Below, piece after piece: positions 28,849 to 57,950 of a DNA stretch of 64,000 nucleotides (its first letter is position 1; each line of letters begins with the position of its first letter). This DNA comes from Candidatus Kaiserbacteria bacterium (GTDB taxonomy: Bacteria > Patescibacteriota > Minisyncoccia > Phycocordibacterales > UBA918): NCBI GenBank assembly GCA_016204695.1, contig JACQKD010000001.1, forward strand, positions 68,976 to 132,975, written 5' to 3'. A program made the position numbers and the translations under genes. Below the pieces are notes generated by a model, which was given only the letters and a program-made list of their open reading frames with translations, made no database searches and was not told where the DNA came from.

Positions 28849-28881
28849 TATGTCTTATACAGACAGTTTTCTGACGGATAA

Positions 28882-28907
28882 CCTGTAGTCGCACGCTACA
28901 GGTTTTT
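28882..28907 (+). terminator. Rho-independent terminator cctgtag-tcgcacg-ctacagg-ttttt
   Basis: 7-bp stem followed by T5. Confidence 0.6.
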
Positions 28908-29088
28908 ATGTTTTCAGAGCCAGAAAACGAGTACAAAACGATAAGCCAAGACACCGATATTGTCCGGCGGGTTTTTGATGACTTTGAGGCACGGAGCAAC
29001 TTTGTTGGCTTCTTTGACCTTGCGTTCAAAGTTGCAAAGCGAAACCCGACGCTGTGGGCGGATATTAGCGGACAAGCACAACCACGCC

Positions 29089-30219: not shown

Positions 30220-30228
30220 TCAAGTATT

Positions 30229-30438
30229 ATGAGGGATGTAAACATGGTGCAAAGTATGAAAAAATCAAACAAGGAGTTTTATACGGCCCAAGAACTTGCC
30301 GACAAGCTGTCACTCAATGTGATGACCATTTATCGGTACATAGATAGGGGCACACTGAAAGCGTACAAAATTGGCAAGGAGTTTCGGATTGAGAAAGACG
30401 AGTTTGAGAAGTTTCTGAATAAGGCAAAAATAAAATAA
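30229..30438 (+). CDS. Excisionase-family helix-turn-helix DNA-binding protein (candidate recombination directionality factor or regulator)
   Basis: YTAQELADKLSLNVMTIYRYIDRGTLKAYKIGKEFRIEKDEFEKFL matches the excisionase-family HTH consensus. Confidence 0.6.
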   Translation: MRDVNMVQSMKKSNKEFYTAQELADKLSLNVMTIYRYIDRGTLKAYKIGKEFRIEKDEFEKFLNKAKIK

Positions 30439-30441
30439 TTT

Positions 30442-31989
30442 ATGGCATCACTCAATTTCAAAGGAAAGTCGGCGGTTTGGAACCATCACTTATCGGTCCC
30501 GTATCACACGCTTGACTTAGACGTAAAAAAGTCCCGCAAGGGCGCGGACAGCGACGAGAACCTTATCATCCACGGAGACAATTTGCTTGCGCTCAAGGCC
30601 CTATTACCCAAATACCAAGGCCGTATAAAGTGCATCTACATTGACCCGCCTTACAACACTGGGAACGAGAACTGGGTGTATAACGACAAGGTAAACAGTC
30701 CGCTTATCAAAGAGTGGCTAGGCAAGACAGTCGCCAAAGACGACCTCACCAAACATGACAAGTGGCTCTGCATGATGACTCCGCGTCTCAAGCTCCTGCG
30801 GGACCTACTTGCCGATGATGGCGTGATTTTTGTGAGCATTGACGATAACGAGCAAGCACACTTGAAAAATCTAATGGATGAAATTTTTGACGAGGGCAAC
30901 TTTATTGGTGAGTTAATTCACCAAAGGGCAAAGGGTGGTGGTCAAGCGAAACAAGTTGTAAAAGGGCATGATTATATCTGTGCCTACGCAAAAAACATTG
31001 ATAGTGGAATAGTTTTAAGGAGAGCCAAAGTTATCCAACAGGATGTTGTGGAAATAGATGGAAAGGAGTATTTGCGCGACGACGATGTTGTAAGAAAACA
31101 GTTTGGTAAATACGACAAATCTCTCGGAGACAGAAGGTGTTTTTATGAGGAATTAGAGAAATATAAGGGACCAACCAAGAAAAAAGAAATTGACGAAAAA
31201 ATAAAGACCGGCGAACTGGTTTTAGAAAAACATCGGAATGGCATGCGTCTGATTGTGAGGTACACATTATTAGACGAAACATCATCAAAGTTATACTCAA
31301 TAATCAAGGTGCTTTCCGAAGACGGAAAAGATGATTTAGCAGACTTGGGTATCCAAGGGTTTAATTATCCAAAACCAGTTGAACTAATTAGACAACTTAT
31401 TCAGTCCGTCATTCTCAACTCCAACACTAAAAATGAAATTATTTTAGATTCTTTTGCTGGTTCCGGCACCACCGCTCATGCGGTCATCAACCTCAATAAA
31501 GAGGATGGCGGCAACCGGAAGTTTATTTTAGTTGAGATGGAGGACTATGCCGACAAAATAACCGCAGAGCGCGTCCGGCGCGTGATTAAAAAAGACAAGC
31601 TCAAGACCGGCTTCTCGTTCTACAACCTCGGACCGGCCATTGATGCCGAAACGATATTGACTGGTAAGCTCCCAACCTACGAACAATTTGCCAAGTATGT
31701 GTTTTATCTTGCTACTGGCAAGAATCTGAAAGACGAAAAGAAAATAAAAGAGAAAGAGTATTTTGTTGGTAAAGATGGCAACGAGACAATCTACCTGCTC
31801 TACAAACAGGACCCAGAAGCCCTAAAAACGCTCGCCATTACGCTGGACTGGGCGCAGATGGCCCATGGTAAGCACGCCGATAAGAAAATCGTTTACGCGC
31901 CCGCGTGCTACTTGGACGAGGAATCGCTGGATAAGTTCAATATCCAGTTCGTAAGCATTCCCTATAACCTCTTTGAAAAGACAACCTAA
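30442..31989 (+). CDS. Type III restriction-modification system methyltransferase (Mod), N6-adenine, beta-class
   Basis: Motif IV IYIDPPYNTGN comes before motif I DSFAGSGTTAHA (beta-class order). The gene sits directly upstream of the res gene. Confidence 0.85.
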   Translation: MASLNFKGKSAVWNHHLSVPYHTLDLDVKKSRKGADSDENLIIHGDNLLALKALLPKYQGRIKCIYIDPPYNTGNENWVYNDKVNSPLIKEWLGKTVAKDDLTKHDKWLCMMTPRLKLLRDLLADDGVIFVSIDDNEQAHLKNLMDEIFDEGNFIGELIHQRAKGGGQAKQVVKGHDYICAYAKNIDSGIVLRRAKVIQQDVVEIDGKEYLRDDDVVRKQFGKYDKSLGDRRCFYEELEKYKGPTKKKEIDEKIKTGELVLEKHRNGMRLIVRYTLLDETSSKLYSIIKVLSEDGKDDLADLGIQGFNYPKPVELIRQLIQSVILNSNTKNEIILDSFAGSGTTAHAVINLNKEDGGNRKFILVEMEDYADKITAERVRRVIKKDKLKTGFSFYNLGPAIDAETILTGKLPTYEQFAKYVFYLATGKNLKDEKKIKEKEYFVGKDGNETIYLLYKQDPEALKTLAITLDWAQMAHGKHADKKIVYAPACYLDEESLDKFNIQFVSIPYNLFEKTT

Positions 31990-31991
31990 CT

Positions 31992-34478: not shown

Positions 34479-36009
34479 CAACACTATGAAAGCAGTCATT
34501 TTAGCGAGAGTATCAACCGAGGAGCAGAAAGATGCGGGCAATTCTCTGCCAGCGCAGATTGAGCGTATAAAGGCGTATTGTGCGCGCAGGGGGCTTGAGG
34601 TAGCGGAGACATTTAGCTTTGACGAGAGTGCGTATAAAACAAAACGGGACGAGTTTGATAAAATCCTCTCTTTTGTAAACGAGTCAAAAGAGAAAATCGC
34701 CATTTGTTTTGACAAGGTAGACCGGTTGTCCCGCAACATCTTTGATAAGCGGGTTGCCCTGTTGTACGAAAAAGCAGTTGCCGATGAGATAGAGTTACAC
34801 TTTGTCTCGGATGGGCAAGTCATCAATAATGCGATGAATGCGGGCGACAAGTTTCGTTTTGGAATGCAACTCGGGCTTTCCAAATACTACTCGGACGCGA
34901 TTAGCGACAATGTGAAGCGGGCGTTTGAGCAGAAGCGGCGCAACGGCGAGTGGACTGGTCCGGTGCGTATTGGGTACAAAAATGTCTCGCTGGATAGCGA
35001 GAAGCGATTGCGGAAAGACATTATGCTTGACCCAGAGCGCGCGCCCTTGGTGAAGAAACTTTTTGAGCTTTACGCTATGGGTAATGATTCCATTACGACC
35101 TTGTGGCGCAAGATAACCGAGATGGGCCTTAAAAGTCCGAACGGCAATATGCTCGCGCGGAGCAATGTTGAGCTGATACTCAAGGACTCGTTCTATTACG
35201 GCACGGCTCACTCGCACAGATATGGACTCTACGAGCATCGCTACCCGCGTCTTATTTCAAGAGAACTATTTGAGAAGTGTCAAGAAGTGCGCCTTGGCAG
35301 GAGCTGGAAACGGTCAAAACTTGCCTCTGCGATGGAGTACATTTTCAAGGGATTGCTTACCTGCAAACGCTGTGGCTGTTTGATGACACCAGAAATAAAG
35401 AAGGGCAAGTTTATCTATTACTCGTGCACAAACGCCAAGGGGATATGTAAACGGCTCTATGTGCCGGAAAAAACGCTCCTAGAGCGCGTCCATGCTATTT
35501 TTAGCGATTTTGAAAGTATCCCGAGAGATGTGCAGGAACGGCTAGTTGACGAACTCCGCGCGCTCAATGAGAGCGAGAAGGACTATCATAATAAGCAACT
35601 GGTACGAGTGAGAGCTGAATACGACCGCGTGCAGAAGCGAGTCAATGCTCTGTTGGATATGCGTTTGGACCAGAGTATTACCCACGCCGACTATGACAAA
35701 AAACTACAAGAGCTCAAAGATGAGCAGTACCATTTGGACATAGAAGCCGAGGAGTATACCAAGGCCGACCACGAGTACCATATCCATGTAGGTACTGTGT
35801 TCAACCTTGCCCGCCGTATGAAAGACATTTTTGAGAGTTCTGAAATTGTGGAAAAACGCGCCTTTCTCAACTTCCTACTTCAGAACCCGACCGTATCGGG
35901 CAAAAACCTAGAGTTTACCTTGCGAAAACCTTTCAATCTGATACATGAACTCGCTCTCAATCCTAACTGGCTCCGCGGGCTGGATTCGAACCAGCGACCA
36001 ACGCTTTAA
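34471..36009 (+). CDS. Large serine recombinase/integrase (resolvase domain + recombinase domain + zinc ribbon + coiled coil)
   Basis: Catalytic Ser context AVILARVSTEEQ, then DKVDRLSRN, the recombinase domain, zinc ribbon CKRCGC...YYSCTNAKGIC and a coiled coil. The last 42 nt lie inside tRNA-Asn. Confidence 0.85.
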   Translation: MHNNTMKAVILARVSTEEQKDAGNSLPAQIERIKAYCARRGLEVAETFSFDESAYKTKRDEFDKILSFVNESKEKIAICFDKVDRLSRNIFDKRVALLYEKAVADEIELHFVSDGQVINNAMNAGDKFRFGMQLGLSKYYSDAISDNVKRAFEQKRRNGEWTGPVRIGYKNVSLDSEKRLRKDIMLDPERAPLVKKLFELYAMGNDSITTLWRKITEMGLKSPNGNMLARSNVELILKDSFYYGTAHSHRYGLYEHRYPRLISRELFEKCQEVRLGRSWKRSKLASAMEYIFKGLLTCKRCGCLMTPEIKKGKFIYYSCTNAKGICKRLYVPEKTLLERVHAIFSDFESIPRDVQERLVDELRALNESEKDYHNKQLVRVRAEYDRVQKRVNALLDMRLDQSITHADYDKKLQELKDEQYHLDIEAEEYTKADHEYHIHVGTVFNLARRMKDIFESSEIVEKRAFLNFLLQNPTVSGKNLEFTLRKPFNLIHELALNPNWLRGLDSNQRPTL

Positions 36010-36042
36010 CAGAGCGCCGCTCTACCACTGAGCTACCGCGGA
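35968..36042 (-). tRNA. tRNA-Asn (anticodon GUU)
   Basis: I folded it by hand. The 7-bp acceptor stem TCCGCGG/CCGCGGA, the D arm GCTC-AGTGGTA-GAGC, the anticodon stem-loop GCGCT-CUGUUAA-AGCGT (GUU) and the T arm GCTGG-TTCGAAT-CCAGC are all present, with discriminator G and an encoded CCA; 75 nt. Confidence 0.9.
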
Positions 36043-36119
36043 ATGGGTTTGTTCTTTGAGAGAACACGGCCATTGTACCTGAAAAGCGTGCGGATTCAAC
36101 ATGGTATACTGACATTGGT

Positions 36120-42203: not shown

Positions 42204-42380
42204 CTATGGGGGAGAGTAGTTGGTGGTTGCTCCGCAGTCGAGGCACACGTAGCCGTTTTCGCGGCGTGCCATTGCGGCTCCGCACTCGCCGCACGAAGGC
42301 ACCTCATCTCTCTCGGTGTCTGGAACTACCGTTGTCGGTAGTCCATATGTGGCTGAAAGCTTCCGTCCCTCTTCGGCCAT
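42204..42380 (-). CDS. Small zinc-ribbon protein (58 aa)
   Basis: CGECG...CLDCG pair; ATG at 42380 preceded by GGAGG. Confidence 0.45.
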   Translation of the reverse strand: MAEEGRKLSATYGLPTTVVPDTERDEVPSCGECGAAMARRENGYVCLDCGATTNYSPP

Positions 42381-42573
42381 GTCGTTTCCCCTCCTAGACG
42401 AGACAAGGATCGTCCCACCTATTCGAGTGCGTCCCGATCGAGTACATACCTGCATTCGAACTCCTTTCGTACTTTATGCCGTGTGCAAAATATCATGCAT
42501 ACCAGGGCGATACAACTACGGCAAATGTTTACCAAGATGCGGTGTAAATTAAAACAAGGTATCATGCCCCTAC

Positions 42574-43596
42574 ATGTCATGGTTCTCCAATCTCTTTTCT
42601 CCAAAGGTTGGTATTGACCTTGGGACGACAAATGTACTCGTGTTTATTCCGGGCAAGGGCATCGTGCTCAATGAGCCGTCGGTGGTCGCGATCTCCGACG
42701 ACAATAAGATTCTCGCGGTCGGACAGGAAGCGAAACATATGATCGGCCGTACGCCGGACAACATCCGCGCGTATCGCCCGATGAAAGACGGCGTGATCGC
42801 CGATTATCGCGTGACCGAGGCGATGCTGCGGTATTTTCTTAAGAAAGCGCTCGGGCGGTGGAATATTTTTAAGCCCGAAGTGATGGTGTCAGTGCCTGCG
42901 GGCGTGACGTCGACCGAACGGCGCGCGGTGATCGAGGCGGCGCTCAAAGCGGGCGCACGCAATGCGTATGTGGTCAAAGAGCCGATCCTTGCCGCCATCG
43001 GCGCGGGTATTCCCATCTACGAGCCGCGCGGACACATGATCGTGGATATCGGCGGCGGCACGATCGACGTGGCGGTGATCTCGCTTGGCGGCATCGTTGC
43101 GGCCAATTCGGTCAAATGCGCCGGTAATCGCATCGACGCGGCGATTGTAGACTACGCGAAAAAACATTCCAATCTTTCGATCGGCGACAAAACCGCCGAA
43201 GACATCAAGATTACGATCGGTTCGGCGCTTCCGCTCGAAGAAGAGATGGTGCTTGCGATCAAAGGACGAGACACACAGTCCGGCCTGCCGCGTACGGTTG
43301 AGATGAAAAGCAATGAGCTGGTGAGTGCGATGGCCCGCGAGCTCCGCGAGATGATCAAGGCGATCAAGGATGTGTTCCAGGATACGCCGCCGGAGCTTGC
43401 GGCCGATATTATCGACCAAGGGATCATTCTCACCGGAGGGACCTCCCAGTTGCGCAACTTCGCCGAGCTCGTGCGTCGTCGTACCGGCGTGAAAGCGAAG
43501 GTCGCCGACAGCGCGCTCTTCTGTGTCGCCAAAGGCACCGGCATCGCACTTGAACATCTCAATACCTACAAACGCAGTATCATCACGAAGCGGTAG
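42574..43596 (+). CDS. mreB: Rod shape-determining protein MreB (actin-like ATPase), paralog 1 (standalone)
   Basis: GIDLGTTN, the DGVIADY phosphate-2 motif and DIGGGT. Confidence 0.9.
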   Translation: MSWFSNLFSPKVGIDLGTTNVLVFIPGKGIVLNEPSVVAISDDNKILAVGQEAKHMIGRTPDNIRAYRPMKDGVIADYRVTEAMLRYFLKKALGRWNIFKPEVMVSVPAGVTSTERRAVIEAALKAGARNAYVVKEPILAAIGAGIPIYEPRGHMIVDIGGGTIDVAVISLGGIVAANSVKCAGNRIDAAIVDYAKKHSNLSIGDKTAEDIKITIGSALPLEEEMVLAIKGRDTQSGLPRTVEMKSNELVSAMARELREMIKAIKDVFQDTPPELAADIIDQGIILTGGTSQLRNFAELVRRRTGVKAKVADSALFCVAKGTGIALEHLNTYKRSIITKR

Positions 43597-43611
43597 GGTA
43601 CAATGTGAAGC

Positions 43612-43878
43612 ATGAAGAAGGTGCTCATCGGCGTGGTCGCGGCATATCTTGCGATCGGACTCACTGTCGGGGGAAATGAATGGCTGAAAGATATGGCGAC
43701 ATTCGACTGTGGTTCGTATACGTATGGAGGCGGTAGTATATTCGAATCAGCCGGTCCGGGCTGTCGGCGCAGAGGCTTGGAGGCAGGCGGCATATTCTCG
43801 GCGGTTGTCGTAGGGGCACTATGGGGACCGCTGATTGTGCCGAGACTACTCTTCCCTGATTCGAGGGAAGAAGTTTGA
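43612..43878 (+). CDS. Small membrane protein (two TM helices)
   Basis: 88 aa; starts 16 nt after the mreB stop. Confidence 0.4.
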   Translation: MKKVLIGVVAAYLAIGLTVGGNEWLKDMATFDCGSYTYGGGSIFESAGPGCRRRGLEAGGIFSAVVVGALWGPLIVPRLLFPDSREEV

Positions 43879-43927
43879 TACTATCCTGATGTGCCGATGG
43901 AGAAACCGCGAATAACATCATCACAAA

Positions 43928-44275
43928 GTGATTATGGTGCACACTAAACCGCCTTCTTCACCTCGGAGTGGTATATACTGGAAGGGAATTAATGCTCATA
44001 CACATATGACCGAAGAACAAAAACAAAAATTAGTTGCCCTTTTTGAAGAGCAGAAAACTTCTGAAGACGACCAAGCGTTCTGGTTTACTCGTTTGTCGGA
44101 TGCCTCGCCGGTACTCTGCGAAAGTGTCATAGAAATGTTCGCATTATTTCCGGGCGAGATGGGGCAACTGCGCGGAATGCAGGAACGAAAAGAACAAGCG
44201 CTTGCAAGTGGAGATATGGACGCGTGGGGTGGAATCGTGGAGGATGAGACACGCCGACTTGCCGCGCTCGCATAG
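43928..44275 (+). CDS. Hypothetical protein, 115 aa
   Basis: Acidic, no motif recognised. Confidence 0.35.
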   Translation: MIMVHTKPPSSPRSGIYWKGINAHTHMTEEQKQKLVALFEEQKTSEDDQAFWFTRLSDASPVLCESVIEMFALFPGEMGQLRGMQERKEQALASGDMDAWGGIVEDETRRLAALA

Positions 44276-44301
44276 GAGATTACGCACTATATTTTACGAA
44301 T

Positions 44302-45405
44302 ATGAATGAAGGAGCACCTAAAGCCAAAAAGATTTCACCGGAACGATTGTCAATCAATACTGTTCAGGAGGAGGATAGCGACTCTACAGAGATGGCGCCC
44401 GATGAGGCCGCTACCGCAGTGCAAGAGGCGATGAAAAAGGGTCAAGAGGTACTGCCTCCTCAGCAAACAGAGATGATCGCGGAGGAAGTGAAAGGAACAG
44501 GCGGGGTCCTGCAGAGATTCGGCGGACGAACAAAGCGAACGATAATGTTCGGTCTTGTCGGCTTGTCACTTCTTGCCGCGTCTCCTCGGTGGTCGGAAGG
44601 CGCTGAAAAAAAAGGATCGGGGGAGCGTATCGAGGAAGTTGCGAAGAATCGTACCGAAGCTGACTATGCGAAAGCATGGAAAGTGCTTGAAGCTTACGGA
44701 GTAAAAAGATCTCCTGATGTAGAAAGAACCGAAAAGCTTGGAGAGCAAATTGCGCCAGGATCGCGCGCTATGAAAATCGAAGGGGAAGTGATGGGGGTCG
44801 CCGAAAAACTCGTACATACCTTGAATACGCTCGCCACCAGAGTGATAACGGGGATGGATAAAGTTAAACGGAGCTACGGGCTTCCTGAAGCGGCGCCCGA
44901 CTTCGAGCAGACAGTGGCAACATTGCAAAAACAACTGGAGTCGGCGGATTCGTTCGATGTCGCATTGAAGGATTTTTCTCGCGGTGATTCCGTATTCAGA
45001 TCATCGGATTCGCTGGATTTTGCGCGCGAACAGTTGCGCGCGGGAGAAGCGTTGATCGCATATTGGAAAGATCCCAAAAACAAGGCCATCCTGGACAAGA
45101 AGTCATCGGCAAAAAAGATTCTTGACCGGTTGGAACAGAAAGAAAAAACCGATCTTTTGAATCGGAACGAAACAGAGCTGAAAAAAGAAGCTCTACGCAT
45201 TCTGGGAGAAGAGTCGTTGCAATCATCCGGGTCCGGAAAACAGGGTGGGAGTGAAACACCGCAACAGCGCGGAGGCACTGAGTTGGACAAGGTGCCGGGT
45301 CAGCTCGAAAAATCCGGCAGGGAGTTGAGGGAGTCTGCCGATAATCTGGGGAGGATAATGCAGGAATATCGCAAGCAGGTTGAAGAGCTCAATAAGAAGA
45401 AGTAG
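44302..45405 (+). CDS. Hypothetical coiled-coil protein with one TM segment
   Basis: TM helix IMFGLVGLSLLAA and a Lys/Glu-rich helical remainder. Confidence 0.45.
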   Translation: MNEGAPKAKKISPERLSINTVQEEDSDSTEMAPDEAATAVQEAMKKGQEVLPPQQTEMIAEEVKGTGGVLQRFGGRTKRTIMFGLVGLSLLAASPRWSEGAEKKGSGERIEEVAKNRTEADYAKAWKVLEAYGVKRSPDVERTEKLGEQIAPGSRAMKIEGEVMGVAEKLVHTLNTLATRVITGMDKVKRSYGLPEAAPDFEQTVATLQKQLESADSFDVALKDFSRGDSVFRSSDSLDFAREQLRAGEALIAYWKDPKNKAILDKKSSAKKILDRLEQKEKTDLLNRNETELKKEALRILGEESLQSSGSGKQGGSETPQQRGGTELDKVPGQLEKSGRELRESADNLGRIMQEYRKQVEELNKKK

Positions 45406-45425
45406 AAAAGCGAAAGAGAGTAGCC

Positions 45426-48194
45426 ATGGAATCTCCTCCGATCAGAAAGTTTTCGTCTCCCGAAGAGGAGATCGCGTATCTGCGTGCACGCATTAATGAG
45501 CGGGAGCGCGACTCCGGGCAGAGTCCGGAGTCAGGTCCGCCGCGCGAAACAATCGCGCGGGAGGAACTCGGCACGTACAGCAGATTTACCCCGCAGTCGG
45601 TACTCGAAAAGGAATATCGGCTTGGTGCCCGCGCAGTCACGAGTGCCGCCGAACGCGTCCGTACATCGGAAGATCAGGTGACGGAAGTCGTCGAGCTTGC
45701 GCACACCAAAGGCATTCGCAATGCGCTTTCGGTCCTCGAAAAGCTCGACAACGCGTTCGTGACTGATGAGGCGCATCGGCGCCTCGTTCAAGATATACAG
45801 CAAGGTCGCGAAGTGATCGGTACGAAGGAGGGCGCACCGCTGTGGGGCGTGCTCCACATGACGCTCTTTGAAGTGACGCTTCCGGAAGAGCGCGAGAAAG
45901 AAGCCGGACAAGAAGCGGAGCTGAAGGGACTCATTTCCGCGATGGAGCAGTTTTACGCGGGCATGCAAGCCATCTCCGGAGAAAAGGGCCTGCCGCGGCA
46001 TTTCACCCTTGAGATCGCGGTATCCGACAAGAGCGACGACATCATTTTCTACGCCGCAGTGCCGACGATGCACATCGATCTTTTTGAAAAACAACTGTTG
46101 TCCCTTTTTCCGAACGCCCAGATTGTCGAACAGAAGAGCGACTACAACATCTTTGTCGACGGGGGTACCGCTTTTGTTTCCGAGATGACACTCTCGCGAC
46201 ATCCGGTGTATCCCATTCGCGGCTACGAGACGTTTGATCGCGATCCGCTCCACGTATTGCTCAATGCTTTTTCAAAAATCGAGCGCGAGGGCGGCGGTGC
46301 GGCGTTCCAAGTGGTCTTGCGGCCGCAGAAAGATACGTACCGCAAGCAGTACGAGCACATCATCAAGAAGGTCCGCGACGGCATGCCGATCAAAAAGGCG
46401 ATTCATATGACCACGATCGGCGGCCAGGCAATCGAGTTGTTCAAAGACATGTTCTCATCCTCGAAGAAAAAGAAGGATGAGGACGAAGAAGAAAAGCACA
46501 AGGTGGACGAGTCGCTTGTCGAGCTTCTCGAAGAAAAAGTCGCACGACCGATCATTCCCGCGAACATCCGCATCGCGGTGTCCGCCGGCGGTGAAGCGCG
46601 CGCCGTGCAGATACTCAATGATATTGAAGCGGGTTTCCATCAGTTTGAAAACACGAAAGGTAATCGCATCGTCTTTAAGAAGCCGAAAGGACGCGCATTG
46701 CGCCGTGCGCTTCGCGCCTTTTCCTTTCGTGAATATCTGAAGGCGGAAGAATTGCCACTCTCAATCACGGAGCTGTCGAGCATCATCCACTTCCCGGTGC
46801 AGGACGTGCGCTTCTCGCCACAGGTCAAACAGACGAGGGCGCAACAGGCGGCCGCGCCGATAGACATGCCTCAAGACGGGACACTCCTCGGCACCAACAC
46901 CTACCGCAACACGGAAACCCCGGTCTACATCACCGCCGACGACCGCCTGCGCCATTTCTACATCATCGGTCAGACCGGCACCGGCAAGACCACGTTGATG
47001 AAGAACATGATCATCCAAGACATCGAGCAGGGCAACGGCGTCTGCATGATCGATCCGCACGGCACGGACATCGTCGACGTGCTTGCCGCCGTGCCGCCCG
47101 AGCGCGAGCAGGACGTCATCTATTTCGATCCCGCGTATACCGAGCGCTCCATCGGCCTCAATATGCTCGAGTTTGATCCCGCGCATCCCGAGCAAAAGAC
47201 GTTTGTGGTGAACGAACTCTTCTCGATCTTCCAAAAGCTGTACGGTGCGGTGCCCGAGAGTATGGGGCCGATTTTCGAACAGTACTTCCGCAACGCGACG
47301 TTGCTCGTACTCGAAGATCCGGAAAGCGGCAACACGCTCATGGATGTCTCGCGCGTGATGGCGGACGCGAGTTATCGGAAACTGAAACTCTCAAAAACGC
47401 ACAATCCGGTCGTCAAACAGTTCTGGGAGGAAATTGCAACGAAGGCCGGCGGTGAAGCCGCGCTCGAAAACATCGTGCCGTATATCACTTCGAAGTTTGA
47501 TGTCTTTACGGCGAATGATTACATGCGTCCGATCATCGGCCAACAGCGGTCCTCGATCAACTTTCGGCGGATCATGGACGAGAAGAAGATTCTGCTCGTC
47601 AATCTCTCAAAAGGCCGCCTCGGCGAGATCAATGCAAACCTCATCGGTATGATCATCGTCGGCAAGCTCCTGATGGCCGCGCTCTCGCGCGTGGATGATC
47701 TCTCTCGTTCTCTCCCGCCGTTTTATCTCCATATGGATGAATTTCAAAACGTGACGACTGACTCCATCACCGCGATTCTCTCCGAAGCCCGTAAATACAA
47801 GCTCGGACTCACCATCGCCAATCAATACATCGCTCAACTCACCGACGAGATTCGCGATGCGGTCTTCGGCAACGTCGGCTCGATCGCGGCGTTCCGCGTC
47901 GGGCCGGAAGACGGTGAATTTCTTGAAAAACAATTTGAGCCGACCTTTTCCGCGCACGATCTGGTTAATATCGAAAATCAGCACGCATATGTGCGACTCT
48001 TGGCGAAGGGTACGCCGCAGAAGCCGTTCTCGATACATACGGTCGCGCCGCGCCCGGTGGATTACGCAAAGGCGCAGGAACGCATCGCGCGGCTCTATGC
48101 CGCGCATGGGCGTCCGCGTGAGGAAGTCGAAGCGGAGATCGCGGCGAGATATCAACGCCCCCCTGTTCCGGTGTCCGGCAGTGTGGTGGTATAG
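45426..48194 (+). CDS. FtsK/HerA-superfamily ATPase, VirD4/TraG/TraD-like (type IV coupling protein-like), with an uncharacterised N-terminal domain of about 470 aa
   Basis: Walker A YIIGQTGTGKTT; a C-terminal TraG-D_C-like region (HMDEFQNV...ARKYKLGLTIANQ); no TM segments. Confidence 0.6.
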   Translation: MESPPIRKFSSPEEEIAYLRARINERERDSGQSPESGPPRETIAREELGTYSRFTPQSVLEKEYRLGARAVTSAAERVRTSEDQVTEVVELAHTKGIRNALSVLEKLDNAFVTDEAHRRLVQDIQQGREVIGTKEGAPLWGVLHMTLFEVTLPEEREKEAGQEAELKGLISAMEQFYAGMQAISGEKGLPRHFTLEIAVSDKSDDIIFYAAVPTMHIDLFEKQLLSLFPNAQIVEQKSDYNIFVDGGTAFVSEMTLSRHPVYPIRGYETFDRDPLHVLLNAFSKIEREGGGAAFQVVLRPQKDTYRKQYEHIIKKVRDGMPIKKAIHMTTIGGQAIELFKDMFSSSKKKKDEDEEEKHKVDESLVELLEEKVARPIIPANIRIAVSAGGEARAVQILNDIEAGFHQFENTKGNRIVFKKPKGRALRRALRAFSFREYLKAEELPLSITELSSIIHFPVQDVRFSPQVKQTRAQQAAAPIDMPQDGTLLGTNTYRNTETPVYITADDRLRHFYIIGQTGTGKTTLMKNMIIQDIEQGNGVCMIDPHGTDIVDVLAAVPPEREQDVIYFDPAYTERSIGLNMLEFDPAHPEQKTFVVNELFSIFQKLYGAVPESMGPIFEQYFRNATLLVLEDPESGNTLMDVSRVMADASYRKLKLSKTHNPVVKQFWEEIATKAGGEAALENIVPYITSKFDVFTANDYMRPIIGQQRSSINFRRIMDEKKILLVNLSKGRLGEINANLIGMIIVGKLLMAALSRVDDLSRSLPPFYLHMDEFQNVTTDSITAILSEARKYKLGLTIANQYIAQLTDEIRDAVFGNVGSIAAFRVGPEDGEFLEKQFEPTFSAHDLVNIENQHAYVRLLAKGTPQKPFSIHTVAPRPVDYAKAQERIARLYAAHGRPREEVEAEIAARYQRPPVPVSGSVVV

Positions 48195-48204
48195 TAGTCA
48201 CGAC

Positions 48205-49737
48205 ATGGTTTCGAATCTTGCAACAGCAGAAAAACCGGAATTGTCGGGACCTGCCGATCTGAGCATTCCCGGGTCCGACGTCGAAAATACGATTCGCGGA
48301 CGCACGCAGCTGATTGAGATGGCCGAAAGAGCGGGGGAAGGAGATCCGACTGCGACGAAAGACATTGGGGAACTTCGTAACCTCATCACCACACTTGCCC
48401 GCAGTAAGCCCGAAGATCGACGTTCGTTGCTGGAAAAGATCCGTAGCAAAGCGTCATCATTCGGGATTGAAATTACCAGGGCCAATGACTACGAGGTTGC
48501 GGCCGCAAACGAGTATGAGGTGCCGAAGATAGCCCACGAAGCGGCAGTCGAGTTGAAAGGGGTGGAATCATCTGCAGTGATTCCCGAAGTATCAAAAACG
48601 GAAGCATCTGCAAATGAAGCGGAACAAGGACTCGGTCGCACGAGGCCGGCGCCGGAGATTGTCAGTCCGGTGTCCATGCCAACGCCTCCGGCGGAGACGG
48701 TGGCGCAGGTGGAGACGGTTACTGTCGCCGATACAATGCCCGATACGATACCCGCTCCCTCATCTGAAGTTGTCCCCGCACCGGCGGCCGTCGCTGAAGT
48801 TCCTGCCGCACCGGAGACTCCTGTTGTTCCGGACGCGGGGAAATTTGTCGAAGACATGAGAGCGCAACTTTCCGGAGCGCATGAATCCGTGTCTCCGGCG
48901 CCGGAAGGAGCCGTTCGCTGGGGAGAGCATATGGAAACTCAAGCCCCTTCCGCTGATGGTGTGCCAATTCCAGAGACAGATCCGGTGGACGCAGATGTGC
49001 GTCCGGTCGGGACACTTCCGCCACTTGCTCCCGTGCCTCACTATACGGAGGCCCCTGCTGTTGCCTCCGGTGAAGCGGCGGTGATCGCCGAAACACCGAT
49101 GCGAGAAGATGCGGAACGTGTTTCTCCGGGAAATGGGGGAGCGGGGAACGCGATCAATGAAGACATTTCTGCCGCAGAAGCACCGGTCCAACCTCCCGTC
49201 ATGGAGCAGGGACAGAGATCTGCGGAAACGCTTCCGCCGCAGACGGAAAAAGACTTCGTCGACTATCGCATGAAAATCGCTCCGGCGGACATGGTCATGC
49301 CGGGAGGTGTCGTATTGGGAACGCCGGAACGTCCTTCCGCCGATGTTGTGTCCGACACAGAGATTGCCCCGCAAGACTTGGACATGTCGCAGGAAGGGGT
49401 AGCGGCACCAGCGGCTGTTCCTGCCGAGGTGGCGGAGGCGCCGGTGGAAAGCTCTCCCGAAGAGCCGATGCTTGCGCCGGTGTCGGTCGAAACCGCGGCC
49501 CCGGCAAGCGATGTTGAATCGCCGACAGCCGAGCCGTCATACGACGAGGCGATACTTGAAGATCCCGAAGTCAGCGGAGGTCTTGCGGAACTCATGGACC
49601 GCTGGCCCGGGTTTGATAGGAGCGGCATACTTGGTTTCGGAGGACACGGCGTCAAGCATCCCGATTTTGAGAATACCAAGGATCGTCTTATGAGGGACAT
49701 TCTCGAACAAGCGGCGTCGCTCAAGGAAGCGGCATAG
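48205..49737 (+). CDS. Acidic Pro/Ala/Glu/Val-rich low-complexity protein (510 aa, predicted disordered)
   Basis: Long stop-free frame starting 11 nt after the ATPase stop. Start moved to ATG 48205; the first 348 nt of the track ORF overlap the ATPase gene. Confidence 0.45.
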   Translation: MVSNLATAEKPELSGPADLSIPGSDVENTIRGRTQLIEMAERAGEGDPTATKDIGELRNLITTLARSKPEDRRSLLEKIRSKASSFGIEITRANDYEVAAANEYEVPKIAHEAAVELKGVESSAVIPEVSKTEASANEAEQGLGRTRPAPEIVSPVSMPTPPAETVAQVETVTVADTMPDTIPAPSSEVVPAPAAVAEVPAAPETPVVPDAGKFVEDMRAQLSGAHESVSPAPEGAVRWGEHMETQAPSADGVPIPETDPVDADVRPVGTLPPLAPVPHYTEAPAVASGEAAVIAETPMREDAERVSPGNGGAGNAINEDISAAEAPVQPPVMEQGQRSAETLPPQTEKDFVDYRMKIAPADMVMPGGVVLGTPERPSADVVSDTEIAPQDLDMSQEGVAAPAAVPAEVAEAPVESSPEEPMLAPVSVETAAPASDVESPTAEPSYDEAILEDPEVSGGLAELMDRWPGFDRSGILGFGGHGVKHPDFENTKDRLMRDILEQAASLKEAA

Positions 49738-49747
49738 GTTCTATATT

Positions 49748-49936
49748 ATGGCAAAAGATCTTAAAGATATCGACCCGAAAATCCTCGCGAGCATCGCCGA
49801 GTATGTCGAAGGTTGGCGGACGGAGCACGGCATCACTCCCGATCCGAATGAAACATTCGAGCATTATCTCCGTCGAGTGATCGCGACGATTTTGGGCAAA
49901 ATTCCGCAATCGTCCGGACAAAATCAGGGACAGTGA
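49748..49936 (+). CDS. Hypothetical small protein (62 aa)
   Basis: ORF with no motif. Confidence 0.3.
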   Translation: MAKDLKDIDPKILASIAEYVEGWRTEHGITPDPNETFEHYLRRVIATILGKIPQSSGQNQGQ

Positions 49937-49987: not shown

Positions 49988-50632
49988 ATGCCAAATCATC
50001 ATGCATTGTTGTCTGTCGGTCCGTACGAGGAATGTTTTGCACTGATTCCGCTTGCGCATCGAAGCGGTGTGGATGCCGAAGTGATCGTATGCGAATCGTT
50101 TGATATTGCGCAGGCGCGAGCTCTGGCGGAAAAGGCGGCGACACGTCCGATTGCGGGAGAGAAACGATATTTTGTCGTCTCGTGCGCGTATATTCCGCAC
50201 GAAGCGCAAAACGCACTTCTGAAACTTTTTGAAGACCCGCCTGCGACCGCGCAGTTTTACATCATCGTGCCGCGCGCGGAGCTGATTCTGCCGACTCTGC
50301 GCTCGCGTCTGCATGTACTGTATGAATCTCCGGTGGTAGGGCGCGCGCTCAATCCCGAGACGTCTGCCTTTCTGGGAGCGGCGTTTGCCGACCGTCTGGA
50401 ACAGATCGCAATGCTTGCCAAAGCAAAGGATGCTCATGCTATGCGCGTTCTTATAAACGGCATCGAGCGCGCCGCGGGTTTCGGCGTTGGAAAATATGTG
50501 CGGGAAAAACAAGATGTGTCGTATCTTGCCGACGTGCTCATGGCCTCCACCTACGCCGAAACCCGCGGCGCCTCCCACAAAATGCTCCTCGAACACCTCG
50601 CGCTGTCGATACCGGAAAAAGCCGGCAGATAA
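49988..50632 (+). CDS. DNA polymerase III delta/delta'-like clamp-loader subunit (degenerate AAA+)
   Basis: RYFVV...EAQNALLKLFEDPP...IIV...LLPTLRSR matches the delta' sensor/box motifs; no intact Walker A. Confidence 0.55.
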   Translation: MPNHHALLSVGPYEECFALIPLAHRSGVDAEVIVCESFDIAQARALAEKAATRPIAGEKRYFVVSCAYIPHEAQNALLKLFEDPPATAQFYIIVPRAELILPTLRSRLHVLYESPVVGRALNPETSAFLGAAFADRLEQIAMLAKAKDAHAMRVLINGIERAAGFGVGKYVREKQDVSYLADVLMASTYAETRGASHKMLLEHLALSIPEKAGR

Positions 50633-52711: not shown

Positions 52712-54010
52712 ATGCGGCAATCGCAACTCTTTACAAAAACACGGCGGGAAGCGCCGAAGGACGAGGTCTCGAAAAACGCTCAGCTGTTGATCCGCGCCGG
52801 GTATATCCATAAGGAAATGGCGGGGGTGTATTCGTACCTGCCGCTTGGCTTGCGGGTACTCAAAAACATCGAGCGGATCATCCGCGAGGAAATGAACGCG
52901 ATCGGCGGGCAGGAGATACAGATGGCGACTCTGCATCCGAGCGAAGTTTGGAAGCAGACCGGCGGCTGGGACGGCGTGGATGTCCTCTTTAAGATACAGA
53001 GCCGGACGGAAAAAGAATATGCGCTCGGGCAGAGCGAGGAAGAAATCGTAACGCCGATCGCACAGGAGTACGCGCTCTCGTACAAGGAGCTCCCGCTCGC
53101 CATATATCAGATCGGACAAAAATACCGCGATGAGCTCCGTGCGAAAAGCGGCATCATGCGTGGGCGCGAATTCGGCATGAAAGACATGTACAGCTTTCAT
53201 GAGTCCCAGGAGGATTTCGAGCGTTTCTACGAGGTCGCAAAAGAAGCGTATCTCAAAGTATTTTCGCGCGCGGGTCTCGACGCGAAGGTGACGGAAGCTT
53301 CAGGTGGCGCGTTCACGACGAAGCTCTCGTACGAATTCATGGTGCTCACCGACGCGGGGGAGGACGACATCGTGTATTGTGACATGTGCACGCATTGTGC
53401 AAACACGGAAGTAGCGGAAGCCGAGTCGGGCGGTACCTGCCCGAAATGCGGCGAAGGAACGCTTGCAAAAGCACGCGCTGCGGAAGTAGGCAATGTCTTC
53501 GATCTTGGACGCAAGTACCCCGAAGCCTTCGGTTACACCTACAAGGACAAGGACGACAAAGATCAGACACCGATTATGGGATGCTACGGCATCGGCACGA
53601 CGCGTCTAATGGGTGCGATCGTCGAGGTCCTCTCGGATGAGAAAGGTATTATCTGGCCGGAGAGTGTCGCGCCGTTTGCGGTGCATCTGGTCGCGCTCAA
53701 TGCCGAAAGCGCGGAACTGCGCGACTATGCCGATACCATCTACAGCGGCCTGTGCGAGCGCGGCATCGAGGTACTCTACGATGATCGTTCGTTGCGTGCC
53801 GGTGAAAAGTTCGCGGACAGCGACCTTATCGGTATTCCGTATCGCGTCGTCGTGAGCGAAAAAACGAAAGAGCAAAATACGTTTGAGGTCGTCAAACGCA
53901 GGACGGGAGAAGTCACGTATCATTCGGAAGAAGAACTGTATGCGAGTCTTCCGCCGGCCGGCGGACCGGAATCTTCGCTCTCCGGTACGGAACAAACGGC
54001 GACGATATGA
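52712..54010 (+). CDS. proS: Proline--tRNA ligase, bacterial type without the INS editing domain (432 aa)
   Basis: Class II motifs, TKLSYEF, a zinc-binding CDMCTHC...CPKCG stretch, and the anticodon-binding C-terminus. Confidence 0.9.
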   Translation: MRQSQLFTKTRREAPKDEVSKNAQLLIRAGYIHKEMAGVYSYLPLGLRVLKNIERIIREEMNAIGGQEIQMATLHPSEVWKQTGGWDGVDVLFKIQSRTEKEYALGQSEEEIVTPIAQEYALSYKELPLAIYQIGQKYRDELRAKSGIMRGREFGMKDMYSFHESQEDFERFYEVAKEAYLKVFSRAGLDAKVTEASGGAFTTKLSYEFMVLTDAGEDDIVYCDMCTHCANTEVAEAESGGTCPKCGEGTLAKARAAEVGNVFDLGRKYPEAFGYTYKDKDDKDQTPIMGCYGIGTTRLMGAIVEVLSDEKGIIWPESVAPFAVHLVALNAESAELRDYADTIYSGLCERGIEVLYDDRSLRAGEKFADSDLIGIPYRVVVSEKTKEQNTFEVVKRRTGEVTYHSEEELYASLPPAGGPESSLSGTEQTATI

Positions 54011-55071
54011 AGAAGTGGTTTTCCCGGCTGACAAACGGTCTGTCCACCGACATCGGCATCGACCTCGGTACCGCCAACACGCTTGTCTACGTCAAGGGCA
54101 AGGGGGTTGTCATCAATGAGCCGACCATGGTGGCCGTGAATCACAAGACGGGACAGCTTGTCGCGGTGGGCGCGGAGGCCAAGGGTATGCTCGGCAGGAC
54201 GCCATCGCATATCGAGGTGGTGCGGCCGCTCGTCGAAGGAGTGATTTCCGACTTTGAAGTGACCGAGGAGATGCTCACCTACTTCATCGGGAAGATCAGG
54301 GAGAGTAATCGCATGCTCATGCCGCCGCGCGTACTCGTCGGTGTGCCGTACGGCATCACGAATGTCGAGATGCGCGCCGCTCGCGACGCCGCCCGCAATG
54401 CGGGCGCTCGCGAAGTGTTGTTGATCGAGGAGCCGATGGCGGCGGCTATCGGGTCAAAACTGCCGGTGTCGAAAGCCATGGGTAATATGATCATCGACAT
54501 CGGCGGCGGCACGACCGACATCGCCGTCATATCGCTTAACGGCATTGTCACGGCGCGCAATCTGCGTACGGCCGGTGATCATCTCAATGCGGATATCATC
54601 GCCTATATTCGCGGCCAGTTTAAGGTGCTCATCGGGGAGCGTACCGCCGAAGAATTGAAAATCGCACTTGCATCCATCGCCGAAGATGGAGAGATGCACG
54701 AAGTAGTGGTGCGCGGTCGCGATGTCGTGACGGGACTGCCGCGCGAAGTGGCGATCACGGATGCCGATGTGCGCCATGCGATCGGACAGGCGATCGACTC
54801 CATTGTCGAATCGGTGCGGGACGTGCTCGAAGAGACGCCGCCCGAAGTGCTCGCGGATGTCATGCAGAGGGGAATCTACTTCTCCGGCGGCGGCGCGCTT
54901 ATCCCGGGGGCCGCGCGACTTCTCGAAGAGCTGATCGGCGTGCCGGTCGTCACCGTCCCGGATCCTCTGCGCGCAGTGATACGGGGGACGGGCATCGTGC
55001 TCGAGAATCTTGACGATTATGCGGATATTCTCATCACCAATGAAGACGAACTCACGCCGCAGTTCACGTAA
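54007..55071 (+). CDS. mreB: Rod shape-determining protein MreB, paralog 2 (heads the mreBCD-mrdA operon)
   Basis: IGIDLGTANT, EGVISDF, DIGGGT. Confidence 0.9.
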   Translation: MKKWFSRLTNGLSTDIGIDLGTANTLVYVKGKGVVINEPTMVAVNHKTGQLVAVGAEAKGMLGRTPSHIEVVRPLVEGVISDFEVTEEMLTYFIGKIRESNRMLMPPRVLVGVPYGITNVEMRAARDAARNAGAREVLLIEEPMAAAIGSKLPVSKAMGNMIIDIGGGTTDIAVISLNGIVTARNLRTAGDHLNADIIAYIRGQFKVLIGERTAEELKIALASIAEDGEMHEVVVRGRDVVTGLPREVAITDADVRHAIGQAIDSIVESVRDVLEETPPEVLADVMQRGIYFSGGGALIPGAARLLEELIGVPVVTVPDPLRAVIRGTGIVLENLDDYADILITNEDELTPQFT

Positions 55072-56255: not shown

Positions 56256-57950
56256 ATGCGTTTGTCCCTTCTGAACATTTTCCGGAAAAAAAGACGCTCG
56301 ACGATTGAATTCGACGAAATATTTCTTGATGCGTCCAATCTTCCATCATTCAACACCGGGCGGCTCGAAGGCCGCCTTGCTCTGCCGCTTTCTCGCGCCA
56401 GCATCATCGGAGTCGGGATCGCGTTCATACTGATCGCACTCGTGTTTCTCGGACAGGCGTTTCGCCTGCAGATCGTGCATGGCGAGGAGTTTCGAGAGCG
56501 GAGTGAGAATAATCGTCTCGACACATCGCTTGTCATCGCGCCGCGCGGGGTCATCTACGATCGCCGCGGCGAACTGCTTGCGTGGAATACCGAGGATGCC
56601 GATATTTCGGATTTCTCCGCGCGCGCGTACACCGATCGCCGCGGCTTGGGTCAGCTTCTCGGACACGTGAGCTATCCCAAGAAAGACAGCTCCGGCGTCT
56701 ACTTTCGCACCGAGTATGAGGGCATCAGCGGTATCGAATCCGCGTACAACGGACAGCTTGCGGGGGAAAACGGAGAACAGCTTATCGAGATCGACGCGAC
56801 GCAGGAGGTCATCTCTCATCATGTCGCGCATCCTTCGCGGGCCGGCGAGCCGCTTACACTCTCGATTGATGCGGAGTTTTCCGAGGCGCTTCATGATGCG
56901 CTTGCGACCACTTCCGAAGAGTATGACTTCCGCAGTGGCGCGGGCGTGGTCATGGATGTGCATACCGGCGAAGTCATCGCACTTGCAAATTTCCCGTCGT
57001 ACAATCCCGGGCTTCTCGCCAAGGGTACTGATGCCGAGGCGATCCACGCACTCACGCAGGATGAACGTCTCCCGTTTCTCAATCGCATCGTGTCGGGGCT
57101 CTACACGCCGGGCTCGATCGTGAAGCCCTTCATGGCGTACGCGGCGCTTGCCGAAAAAATCATCGATCCGAGCAAGCAGATTTTATCGACCGGGTCGATT
57201 GTCATTCCCAATCTCTATAACCCAAGCAATCCTTCCGTTTTCAACGATTGGCGCGCTCACGGTCTCGTCGACATGCGCCGCGCGATTGCCGTCTCCTCAA
57301 ACGTATATTTCTACACGATCGGCGGCGGTTACGGCGGCCAAGCCGGTCTGGGCATCAGCCGCATCAACGATTACATGCATCGTTTCGGCTTCGGCGAGCC
57401 GGTACATACGCCGCTTGCCGAAGGTAAGGCCGGCACCGTGCCGAATCCGGAATGGAAGGAGGAGACGTTCGGCGAAGAATGGCGTCTCGGCGATACGTAC
57501 TTCACGTCGATCGGACAGTTTGGTTTTCAAGTGACACCGCTCCAGATGTTGCGCGCCTACGGCGCGATCGCCAACGGCGGCACCATGCTTACGCCGCATT
57601 TTATCCAAGGAGAACCGTCGTCTTCGTATGATCTCCGTCTTGATCCGGCATATCTTGCGGTCATACGGGAGGGTATGCGACAGTCGGCGACAGATGGCAC
57701 GGCGCGATCGCTCAATCGCGGCGACATCCATATCGCCGCCAAGACCGGCACCGCGCAGATCGGCGCAAACAACGAATTCATCAACTCATGGGCGGTCGGA
57801 TACTTCCCGTACGAAAATCCGAAGTATGTATTTGTGACGCTCCTTGAGCACGGGCCGCGCACCAATCTCTTCGGTTCCGCGCCGACCATGAGCCGTGTCA
57901 TCAACTGGCTCGCCCACAACCGCCCAGAGTATCTTGGTGACATACAATAG
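56256..57950 (+). CDS. mrdA: Penicillin-binding protein 2 (elongation-specific transpeptidase)
   Basis: PBP dimerisation domain plus transpeptidase motifs (SxxK: GSIVKP; SxN; KTGT). Confidence 0.85.
   Translation: MRLSLLNIFRKKRRSTIEFDEIFLDASNLPSFNTGRLEGRLALPLSRASIIGVGIAFILIALVFLGQAFRLQIVHGEEFRERSENNRLDTSLVIAPRGVIYDRRGELLAWNTEDADISDFSARAYTDRRGLGQLLGHVSYPKKDSSGVYFRTEYEGISGIESAYNGQLAGENGEQLIEIDATQEVISHHVAHPSRAGEPLTLSIDAEFSEALHDALATTSEEYDFRSGAGVVMDVHTGEVIALANFPSYNPGLLAKGTDAEAIHALTQDERLPFLNRIVSGLYTPGSIVKPFMAYAALAEKIIDPSKQILSTGSIVIPNLYNPSNPSVFNDWRAHGLVDMRRAIAVSSNVYFYTIGGGYGGQAGLGISRINDYMHRFGFGEPVHTPLAEGKAGTVPNPEWKEETFGEEWRLGDTYFTSIGQFGFQVTPLQMLRAYGAIANGGTMLTPHFIQGEPSSSYDLRLDPAYLAVIREGMRQSATDGTARSLNRGDIHIAAKTGTAQIGANNEFINSWAVGYFPYENPKYVFVTLLEHGPRTNLFGSAPTMSRVINWLAHNRPEYLGDIQ

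Follow-up and report, generated by a model that had tools for sequence, protein, structure and literature searches.

VirB4, represented by TrwK of plasmid R388, is the signature ATPase of all type IV secretion systems (T4SSs), and the nucleotide-binding domains of type IV coupling proteins (T4CPs) translocate DNA in conjugation. A considerable part of bacterial diversity belongs to Patescibacteria, which live attached to other cells. T4CPs that lack a transmembrane domain are a recognized class, exemplified by the TraJ/TraI pair of pIP501 (PMC7431656). In Southlakia, the only member of Patescibacteria amenable to genetics, a relaxase-less T4SS is essential for epibiotic growth, and no coupling protein was recognized in the T4SS gene cluster (PMC10633639). 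A recent survey reports a relaxase-less chromosomal T4SS in about 80% of Patescibacteria genomes and 5,713 T4CP homologs in the group, nearly all away from virB4, for which possible exaptation is raised (Quinonero-Coronel et al. 2025, PMC12102498). Orphan T4CP-like genes in the phylum thus number in the thousands, and their presence has not been explained. Here, we describe one such T4CP-like ATPase of 922 residues, encoded in a stretch of 64,000 nucleotides from a Candidatus Kaiserbacteria bacterium (assembly GCA_016204695.1, contig JACQKD010000001.1, positions 68,976 to 132,975). This whole stretch is referred to as the window, and positions are counted from its first letter. On balance, the ATPase is likely to be an exapted, anchorless coupling-protein-like translocase that is conserved in Paceibacteria, a class of ultra-small bacteria, and feeds a membrane channel.

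The protein is identical to MBI4086459.1, annotated as 'DUF87 domain-containing protein [Candidatus Kaiserbacteria bacterium]'. Its family is already catalogued, under DUF8128/DUF87 or as 'T4SS DNA-binding domain-containing protein'. No paper was found that mentions DUF8128, or Patescibacteria together with DUF87. A preliminary description of the locus had grouped the ATPase with its neighbors in one gene cluster. For that cluster, the main result is deflationary: the ATPase is the only deeply conserved part of the locus.

Domain organization of the ATPase

The ATPase and its homologs are composed of DUF8128 followed by a DUF87-type P-loop domain. The features of the window protein are as follows.

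45426–48194, plus strand: ATPase, 922 residues, DUF8128 and a T4CP-type nucleotide-binding domain
45426–45845, plus strand: residues 1–140, helical N-terminal extension with the motif F-x-SPEEEIAYLR, seen from conservation and from helices in the model, long form only
45846–46865, plus strand: residues 141–480, DUF8128 (PF26449) core, alpha/beta, from the precomputed Pfam assignment and AlphaFold2
46866–48194, plus strand: residues 481–922, T4CP-type nucleotide-binding domain, from profile, PDB, and fold matches
46968–46991, plus strand: Walker A, GQTGTGKT, residues 515–522
about 47190–47537, plus strand: all-alpha insertion, helices in the model
47721–47741, plus strand: Walker B, FYLHMDE, residues 766–772

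The assignment of the C-terminal half as a T4CP-type (VirD4/TraD/TrwB) nucleotide-binding domain with intact Walker motifs is strongly supported. The Walker A motif noticed in the preliminary description is present, the Walker residues are invariant across the family, and the ATPase domain as a whole is very strongly conserved. Pfam matches above threshold are DUF87 and TrwB_AAD_bind (23.3 bits, cutoff 20.5). The best NCBIfam match is SXT_TraD (7.9e-19), followed by other TraD/VirD4 models, while CedD, VirB4, and HerA are weaker. The proposed TraG-D_C-like C terminus corresponds to a real match, but one that stays below threshold in the window protein (19.4 bits versus a cutoff of 22); it rises above threshold in some relatives. 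Short-form members of the family, described below, exceed the gathering scores of TrwB_AAD_bind (positions 10–312 of 387), T4SS-DNA_transf, and TraG-D_C. When the family profile is compared with PDB sequences, TrwB (1e-4) and DotL (3e-4) are the best matches. Of the VirB4 sequence models, PF03135 (CagE_TrbE_VirB) and AAA_10 give no match to the protein, and TIGR00929 matches at E 0.01 over the P-loop only.

The AlphaFold2 model contains six helices (residues 589–704) between Walker A and Walker B, where T4CPs carry their all-alpha domain. Among the single-domain matches in a fold search with the full-length model, TrwB has a target-normalized TM-score of 0.58 and is followed by Cag-beta, DotL, and HerA, with E values of about 1e-6. 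These matches support placing the ATPase, as had been proposed, in the VirD4/T4CP branch of the HerA-FtsK superfamily, with a large N-terminal domain in addition.

A probable VirB4-like fold in the N-terminal domain

The N-terminal domain is large and additional to the ATPase domain, but it is not the unknown domain of the preliminary description, being already classified in Pfam as PF26449 (DUF8128). This call is taken from the precomputed Pfam annotation of the exact protein and its homologs. No hydrophobic segment is found in residues 1–480, and the only one in the protein (residues 735–756) lies within the ATPase core, which agrees with the earlier remark that a transmembrane anchor is missing. 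That DUF8128 stands in place of the usual two-helix membrane anchor is strongly supported.

The AlphaFold2 model of the N-terminal domain, computed with 44 sequences, has a predicted local distance difference test (pLDDT) score of 83.9 and a predicted TM-score (pTM) of 0.80. In a Foldseek search against the PDB, the top 14 matches are all TrwK/VirB4 of plasmid R388, with E values of 1.8e-5 to 3e-3 over about 410 columns. The next fold families begin at E 0.02, about 1000-fold worse. The full-length model (pLDDT 73.9, pTM 0.48) aligns with VirB4 chains over 850–930 columns with E values down to 2.6e-10, better than any single-domain match. These full-length alignments are collinear and therefore pair the N-terminal domain with that of VirB4. 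As judged from the predicted models, the domain probably has a fold like that of the VirB4 N-terminal domain, and not that of a housekeeping family such as FtsK.

A motif at residues 431–457 of the ATPase, FSFRE[YF]...LPLS..EL...HFP, resembles 'IYSFREYPATTRPGMLNVLLSLDFP' in Agrobacterium VirB4 (L088, residues 238–264). The likeness, which includes a shared 'SFREY' pentapeptide, is not significant (hhalign E value 0.26), and since its spacing from Walker A is not the same in the two proteins, it is no more than a curiosity.

Conservation and genomic contexts

More than 90 related loci were gathered through look-ups of exact proteins and from a scan covering one genome per species, and every protein of the window was searched against 84 of them by tblastn. 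The scan finds a relative of the ATPase in at least 451 species-level genomes. Full-length homologs number more than 1000. A total of 1172 homologs were scored, the best 120 of which are 59–100% identical over 97–100% of the length. The N-terminal domain alone is matched by 976 representative clusters at 50% identity. A viral origin was considered and rejected, as no relative of the ATPase occurs among the viral contigs of IMG/VR.

The family occurs in two forms. The long form has about 920 residues. The short form, of about 800 residues, starts at approximately query residue 142 and lacks the first 140 or so residues; it occurs in Wolfebacteria/Minisyncoccia, and one short-form relative is named 'DUF8128 domain-containing protein' in UniRef.

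In the Kaiserbacteria-like clade, where the ATPase is at least 57% identical, the gene order is fmt-def-priA-murA-mreB-ATPase-(variable)-holB-frr-rseP-proS. The mreB gene of this series lies upstream of the ATPase in 28 of the 84 loci searched by tblastn, and within the clade it always precedes the ATPase. In other Paceibacteria (about 25 loci), the ATPase follows an upstream gene array ending in map and stands directly before ndk. Pfam confirms map alone in this array, from Peptidase_M24 matches; the array is taken to be the end of the spc ribosomal-protein operon. Further contexts place the ATPase before a large variable protein and an FKBP gene, between recJ and comEC, or near rmuC, and SAICAR synthase is also among its neighbors. 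Since map/ndk, FKBP, SAICAR synthase, and others are the neighbors outside the clade, the linkage to mreB and holB is clade-specific. The ATPase is thus a conserved chromosomal gene among housekeeping genes in Paceibacteria, and its synteny looks like vertical inheritance. Its G+C content at third codon positions (GC3) resembles that of core genes, with values of 0.65–0.71 for mreB, the ATPase, frr, rseP, and proS.

At one locus (L090; GCA_041389005.1, JAWKSR010000003.1), only about 1.7 kb separates mreB from a stand-alone gene for the C-terminal domain of the acidic protein described below, and the ATPase is absent. This absence may be an assembly artifact, because many genes there are fragmented (mreB, rseP, and murA).

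In three flanking contexts, the ATPase is followed by a gene for a large acidic protein of 580–1850 residues, often with a protein of about 105 residues containing DUF5663 after it (loci L006–L012, L016, L020, L026, L031–L038, and L059–L077). A core of about 300 residues is common to twelve of the large proteins, four of which match it more weakly. The core consists of a coiled-coil region and two Gly/Ala-rich hydrophobic helices, followed by a Pro-rich linker. By analogy with TraI and TraJ of pIP501 (PMC7431656), the large acidic protein may be a membrane partner of the soluble ATPase. No gene for such a protein is present at the window locus. Two proteins encoded beside the ATPase in the window, of 367 and 510 residues, were considered as short versions of it and rejected, as neither matches the conserved core. 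A DUF5663 homolog was likewise sought in a 115-residue protein of the locus and rejected (hmmsearch 7.8 bits, hhalign probability 5%).

A plasmid homolog in a conjugation cluster

A tblastn search of 72,556 plasmids with the ATPase returned 577 records, mostly matching the ATPase domain only. Three Bacillus subtilis plasmids encode a 913-residue 'DUF87 domain-containing protein' that matches beyond this domain. One of these proteins, WP_213380696.1 (plasmid NZ_OX419568.1), aligns with query residues 194–876 at 24% identity (BLASTP 1e-30). Its N-terminal 320 residues match the DUF8128 profile with an hhalign probability of 97.7% (E 2e-12), and it has no transmembrane segment.

The gene directly 3' of that for WP_213380696.1 is annotated in the record as 'replication-relaxation family protein' and is followed by TcpC and TcpE. 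Next come an AAA_10 (VirB4-type) ATPase of 854 residues and a polytopic membrane protein of 1126 residues. WP_213380696.1 thus occupies the coupling-protein position of a Tcp-type conjugation cluster, as in Gram-positive bacteria. It is not the VirB4 of that system, because the cluster has its own AAA_10 VirB4-type ATPase.

WP_213380696.1 and the window ATPase share a DUF8128-like N-terminal domain, a T4CP-type ATPase domain, and the lack of a transmembrane segment. They differ in that the plasmid protein is without the first 190 or so residues and has a C-terminal extension of about 170 residues. In addition, the Paceibacteria gene is an orphan, but that of the plasmid belongs to a conjugation cluster and neighbors a relaxase-like gene.

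Outside Patescibacteria, the relative closest to the ATPase domain is a 395-residue stand-alone protein on the Sulfitobacter mediterraneus plasmid NZ_CP081110.1 (L094, 9031–10218), which is 36% identical to the ATPase half (E 7e-62). It is located among recombinase and transposase genes with no T4SS nearby and is uninformative about function.

Function of the ATPase

As an exapted coupling-protein-like translocase, the ATPase would assemble into a ring, as other T4CPs do, and would spend ATP to hand or pump a polymer substrate, either DNA or unfolded protein, to a membrane channel. It would be brought to the membrane through its VirB4-like N-terminal domain or by a separately encoded membrane partner, not by helices of its own. 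The likeliest channel would be the relaxase-less chromosomal T4SS described for Patescibacteria.

Several observations weigh against this explanation. With regard to the protein itself, the TM-scores between the N-terminal domain and VirB4 are low (0.31–0.38), and the inter-domain geometry of the full-length model is uncertain, with a pTM of 0.48. Sequence profiles built from the N-terminal domain detect no VirB4 N-terminal domain; compared with solved structures, Agrobacterium VirB4, and VirD4, they give a match to the P-loop only, or none. Among curated T4CP equivalog models, the best reaches 67.5 bits versus a cutoff of 366 (TIGR03743), and the others are lower. With regard to its surroundings, no T4SS, relaxase, or VirB4 gene is present in the 64-kb window, and none of the neighbors in the more than 90 Paceibacteria loci links the ATPase to relaxase or T4SS channel genes. 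A census of 150 neighbor proteins from 35 loci of the other contexts yields a mixed housekeeping set with no enrichment of T4SS, relaxase, or competence genes. The DUF8128 ATPases are probably among the 5,713 T4CP homologs mentioned above. In the one Saccharibacteria transposon sequencing (Tn-seq) study, the T4CP homolog, which may or may not be a DUF8128 member, was reported as non-essential (PMC12102498).

A more far-reaching proposal, which is rather unlikely, would make the DUF8128 ATPases a third and previously undefined class of T4SS-type motor. Their T4CP-type ATPase domain would still be fused to a VirB4-type N-terminal domain, so that they would represent a surviving intermediate between VirB4 and T4CPs. 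They would act as coupling proteins on some Firmicutes plasmids and, as a core gene of Paceibacteria, would feed the relaxase-less T4SS behind the epibiotic lifestyle. A fast-evolving membrane partner would recruit them. In many lineages, this would be the large acidic protein with mid-protein transmembrane helices together with the DUF5663 protein; in Kaiserbacteria, it could be the conserved C-terminal domain of the acidic protein.

It is unlikely that the ATPase works independently of a T4SS as a DNA-uptake motor, pulling incoming DNA through ComEC in natural transformation in place of ComFA. Such a role would suit a T4CP-type domain, given that these domains are DNA translocases in conjugation, and two contexts point in this direction. 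One lineage (L031, L032, and L034) has the order recJ, ATPase, large protein, DUF5663, an open reading frame (ORF) of about 150 residues, and comEC. In Wolfebacteria (L091 and L092), two small ORFs separate the short form from a downstream comFC-like gene on the opposite strand, after which comes a full type IV pilus operon (pilM, pilO, pilB, pilT, pilC, pilin, and pilD). Natural competence has also been demonstrated in Patescibacteria (PMC10633639). However, these are only two of about six independent genomic contexts, and the neighbor census is without competence-gene enrichment. On the premise that competence and pilus genes take up about 2.5% of a small genome, we estimate a probability of about 1 in 6 that two such adjacencies arise by chance, so that the two contexts do not exceed chance expectation. 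No competence gene is present at the window locus.

A housekeeping role in the cell cycle, in which the ATPase would pump DNA like FtsK or TraB during chromosome segregation or division, in connection with cell shape and replication genes, is quite improbable. The tight synteny with mreB upstream and holB downstream across the Kaiserbacteria clade, the nearby priA, and the very strong conservation of the ATPase domain would fit this role. The FtsK_SpoIIIE model also matches the ATPase weakly (E 0.013, 15.4 bits, below the cutoff of 24) and scores 24.6 bits with the Bacillus homolog WP_213380696.1. However, the ATPase has neither the gamma domain of FtsK nor a transmembrane segment, and both its sequence and its fold are nearer to T4CPs and VirB4 than to FtsK, which is absent from the fold matches of the full-length model at E≤1e-3. 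The location of the plasmid homolog in a conjugation cluster also argues against a cell-cycle pump.

The gene neighborhood of the ATPase

Six co-directional ORFs on the plus strand, including that of the ATPase, occupy 43612–49936 on the 3' side of mreB, with intergenic gaps of 10–51 nt. The genes surrounding the ATPase are listed below.

42574–43596, plus strand: mreB paralog, Pfam MreB_Mbl 4e-129, conserved context outside the ATPase family
43612–43878, plus strand: 88-residue protein with two hydrophobic segments, a strain-specific orphan
43928–44275, plus strand: 115-residue acidic orphan, called as 113 residues from the ATG at 43934, no family matches
44302–45405, plus strand: 367-residue orphan, one short hydrophobic stretch at residues 80–94, the remainder charged and helical
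48205–49737, plus strand: acidic Pro/Ala/Glu-rich protein of 510 residues, with homologs encoded between the ATPase gene and holB at about 20 loci of the Kaiserbacteria clade
49748–49936, plus strand: 62-residue ORF, which supplies the other two thirds of the C-terminal domain conserved in the acidic protein
49988–50632, plus strand: holB (DNA polymerase III delta'), from family matches and synteny, conserved downstream context

Gene order and coordinates agree with the preliminary description and with the independent gene calls of two further contigs of the same organism, which carry the same genes. The neighbors of the ATPase are annotated as hypothetical, with locus tags HY416_00535 to HY416_00560. 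The downstream order is holB, frr, rseP, proS, a second mreB, and a PBP2-type transpeptidase gene, and fmt, def, priA, and murA are located on the opposite strand upstream of the first mreB. As had been noted, the mreB next to the ATPase is one of two paralogs. The second (54007–55071) is about 10 kb from the first and about 2 kb upstream of the PBP2-type transpeptidase gene (56256–57950). Relatives have mreC, a small ORF, and PBP2 after the second mreB.

The proteins of 88, 115, and 367 residues are found only in the same-organism contigs (L001 and L002) among the 84 loci searched by tblastn, and the 367-residue protein has no homolog besides itself among 5.8 billion clustered proteins. The GC3 of the three genes is 0.45–0.55 (0.55 for the 88-residue protein, compared with 0.70 for its conserved neighbors, and 0.45 for the 115-residue protein). 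While three orphan genes fill the spacer in the window (43597–45425), it holds a gene of the aminoglycoside phosphotransferase (APH) family in L004 (8953–9699) and a PIN-domain toxin pair in L085 (5686–6814), and it is empty in some close relatives. The spacer is a hot spot for unrelated accessory genes. Because they are confined to the same organism, have atypical GC3, and are replaced by other contents in relatives, the three upstream genes are recent, lineage-specific fillers of the spacer.

According to the preliminary description, the genes from that of the 88-residue protein through that of the acidic protein might make up a single apparatus serving secretion, DNA transfer, or cell–cell interaction, or the ATPase might be a HerA-type defense protein. 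Some of its details hold: the 88-residue 'two-TM mini-protein' has hydrophobic segments at residues 4–22 and 58–79. The 'bitopic' 367-residue protein is marginal, its sole hydrophobic stretch being 13–15 residues long (IMFGLVGLSLLAA, residues 80–94). A single apparatus is very improbable and largely refuted by synteny: although the genes run in the same direction, the gaps between them are short and free of predicted plus-strand terminators, and the hydrophobic segments of the 88- and 367-residue proteins could in principle anchor a soluble ATPase, the three upstream genes, all atypical in GC3 and one of them a strict orphan, are absent from every other locus among the more than 90, the spacer of close relatives holds unrelated genes or nothing, and other Paceibacteria have the ATPase alone between map and ndk. 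The cluster is thus not kept as a unit in related genomes, and most of it is strain-specific filler. The defense role is not supported, since the PADLOC matches (mad8 at 7e-12 and weak HerA matches) cover the generic P-loop domain only, no nuclease, SIR2, or methylase gene is adjacent, and the synteny is of the housekeeping type.

Two further features of the window lie outside this neighborhood. An ORF of 83 residues encoding a zinc ribbon is located between murA and mreB (42204–42455, minus strand). Its sole notable match is the C-terminal zinc ribbon of B12-dependent ribonucleotide reductase (NF005122, E 4e-5), and it is present only in the same-organism contigs. The region 24000–36050 has a low G+C content of 0.40–0.51, compared with about 0.55 elsewhere. 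Its genes encode an N6/N4 DNA methylase (30442–31989), a ResIII/DEAD helicase of 828 residues (31992–34478), and a large serine recombinase (34471–36009), the last of which abuts at its end a gene for tRNA-Asn (35968–36042, minus strand). The region looks like an integrated element with a type III-like restriction-modification system.

The acidic protein and its split C-terminal domain

The 510-residue protein encoded after the ATPase is acidic and rich in Pro, Ala, and Glu, in agreement with the preliminary description. It has an isoelectric point of 4.27 and contains 15% Ala, 12% Glu, and 11% Pro; its gene is separated from the ATPase stop codon by a spacer of 10 nt. The N-terminal region of about 100 residues is weakly conserved, and the middle region is hypervariable in both length and sequence.

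The C terminus of the protein and the 62-residue ORF downstream align to one domain of about 125 residues, whose first third is encoded in the 510-residue ORF, from about 49555. The near-invariant residues of the domain include W, G-x-G, HP, GRxEG, W-R-x-E, and ETFExYLRRV. In about 20 Kaiserbacteria-clade loci, it forms the end of a protein of 450–730 residues encoded just upstream of holB. A profile search with the domain retrieved 141 proteins, all without a Pfam domain, many of which are stand-alone proteins of 100–250 residues. The few that are named are hypothetical proteins from Kaiserbacteria or Paceibacterota, and one case that was checked has the same synteny. Profile searches did not find the domain outside the Kaiserbacteria clade. 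Whether the acidic protein is conserved or lineage-specific had been raised earlier; it is specific to the Kaiserbacteria clade and has a conserved C-terminal domain.

In the window, a stop codon interrupts the domain at its GRxEG motif; 10 nt later, a new ATG opens the second ORF in another frame. As an explanation, a frameshift or an error in sequencing was considered and rejected. L087, whose ATPase is 89% identical, has the same split with each half intact, and the split is therefore a fixed gene fission and not an assembly error. In other relatives, the domain is fused or split at other positions. From the alignment, the 62-residue ORF can be assigned to the acidic protein.

Comparison with known systems

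The ATPase shares with the T4CPs VirD4, TrwB of R388, TraD, and DotL the type of nucleotide-binding domain, the all-alpha insertion, and the TraG-D_C-like region. It differs from them as follows. First, it has a DUF8128 N-terminal domain of 470 residues, to which the solved T4CPs that were matched do not align. Second, the N-terminal transmembrane anchor of T4CPs is absent. Third, the Paceibacteria ATPase has no adjacent relaxase or T4SS genes and is a conserved chromosomal gene, not a gene of a mobile element. The lack of a membrane anchor of its own is a property shared with the TraJ class of pIP501, in which the ATPase is recruited by TraI (PMC7431656).

The layout of the ATPase, with a soluble N-terminal domain and an ATPase domain, may correspond to that of VirB4/TrwK, with which the full-length predicted model aligns end to end. 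However, no sequence match extends beyond the P-loop, and the ATPase domain is nearer to T4CPs by sequence.

HerA and FtsK/SpoIIIE are members of the same superfamily. Pfam DUF87 is the central domain of HerA, and HerA structures are among the fold matches, but they are weaker than those of VirB4 and T4CPs. The model of the N-terminal domain of the ATPase matches VirB4 and not the HerA barrel, and no NurA, SIR2, or nuclease partner is present in the ATPase locus or in related loci. FtsK and SpoIIIE differ from the ATPase by their gamma domain and membrane segment.

Another described group is that of the orphan T4CP homologs of Patescibacteria, which, like the ATPase, are widespread, chromosomal, and away from virB4, and for which exaptation has been suggested. 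The DUF8128 N-terminal domain, the VirB4-like fold, the synteny classes, and the plasmid homolog do not appear in the available portions of that survey (PMC12102498). For one such family, the present analysis adds class-wide conservation, the lack of an anchor, a probable VirB4-like N-terminal domain, and a plasmid relative at the coupling-protein position. The ATPase is therefore a concrete candidate for the missing coupling component of the Patescibacteria T4SS, and the Bacillus plasmid homolog provides a tractable model for testing. The findings may also be relevant to the divergence between coupling proteins and VirB4.

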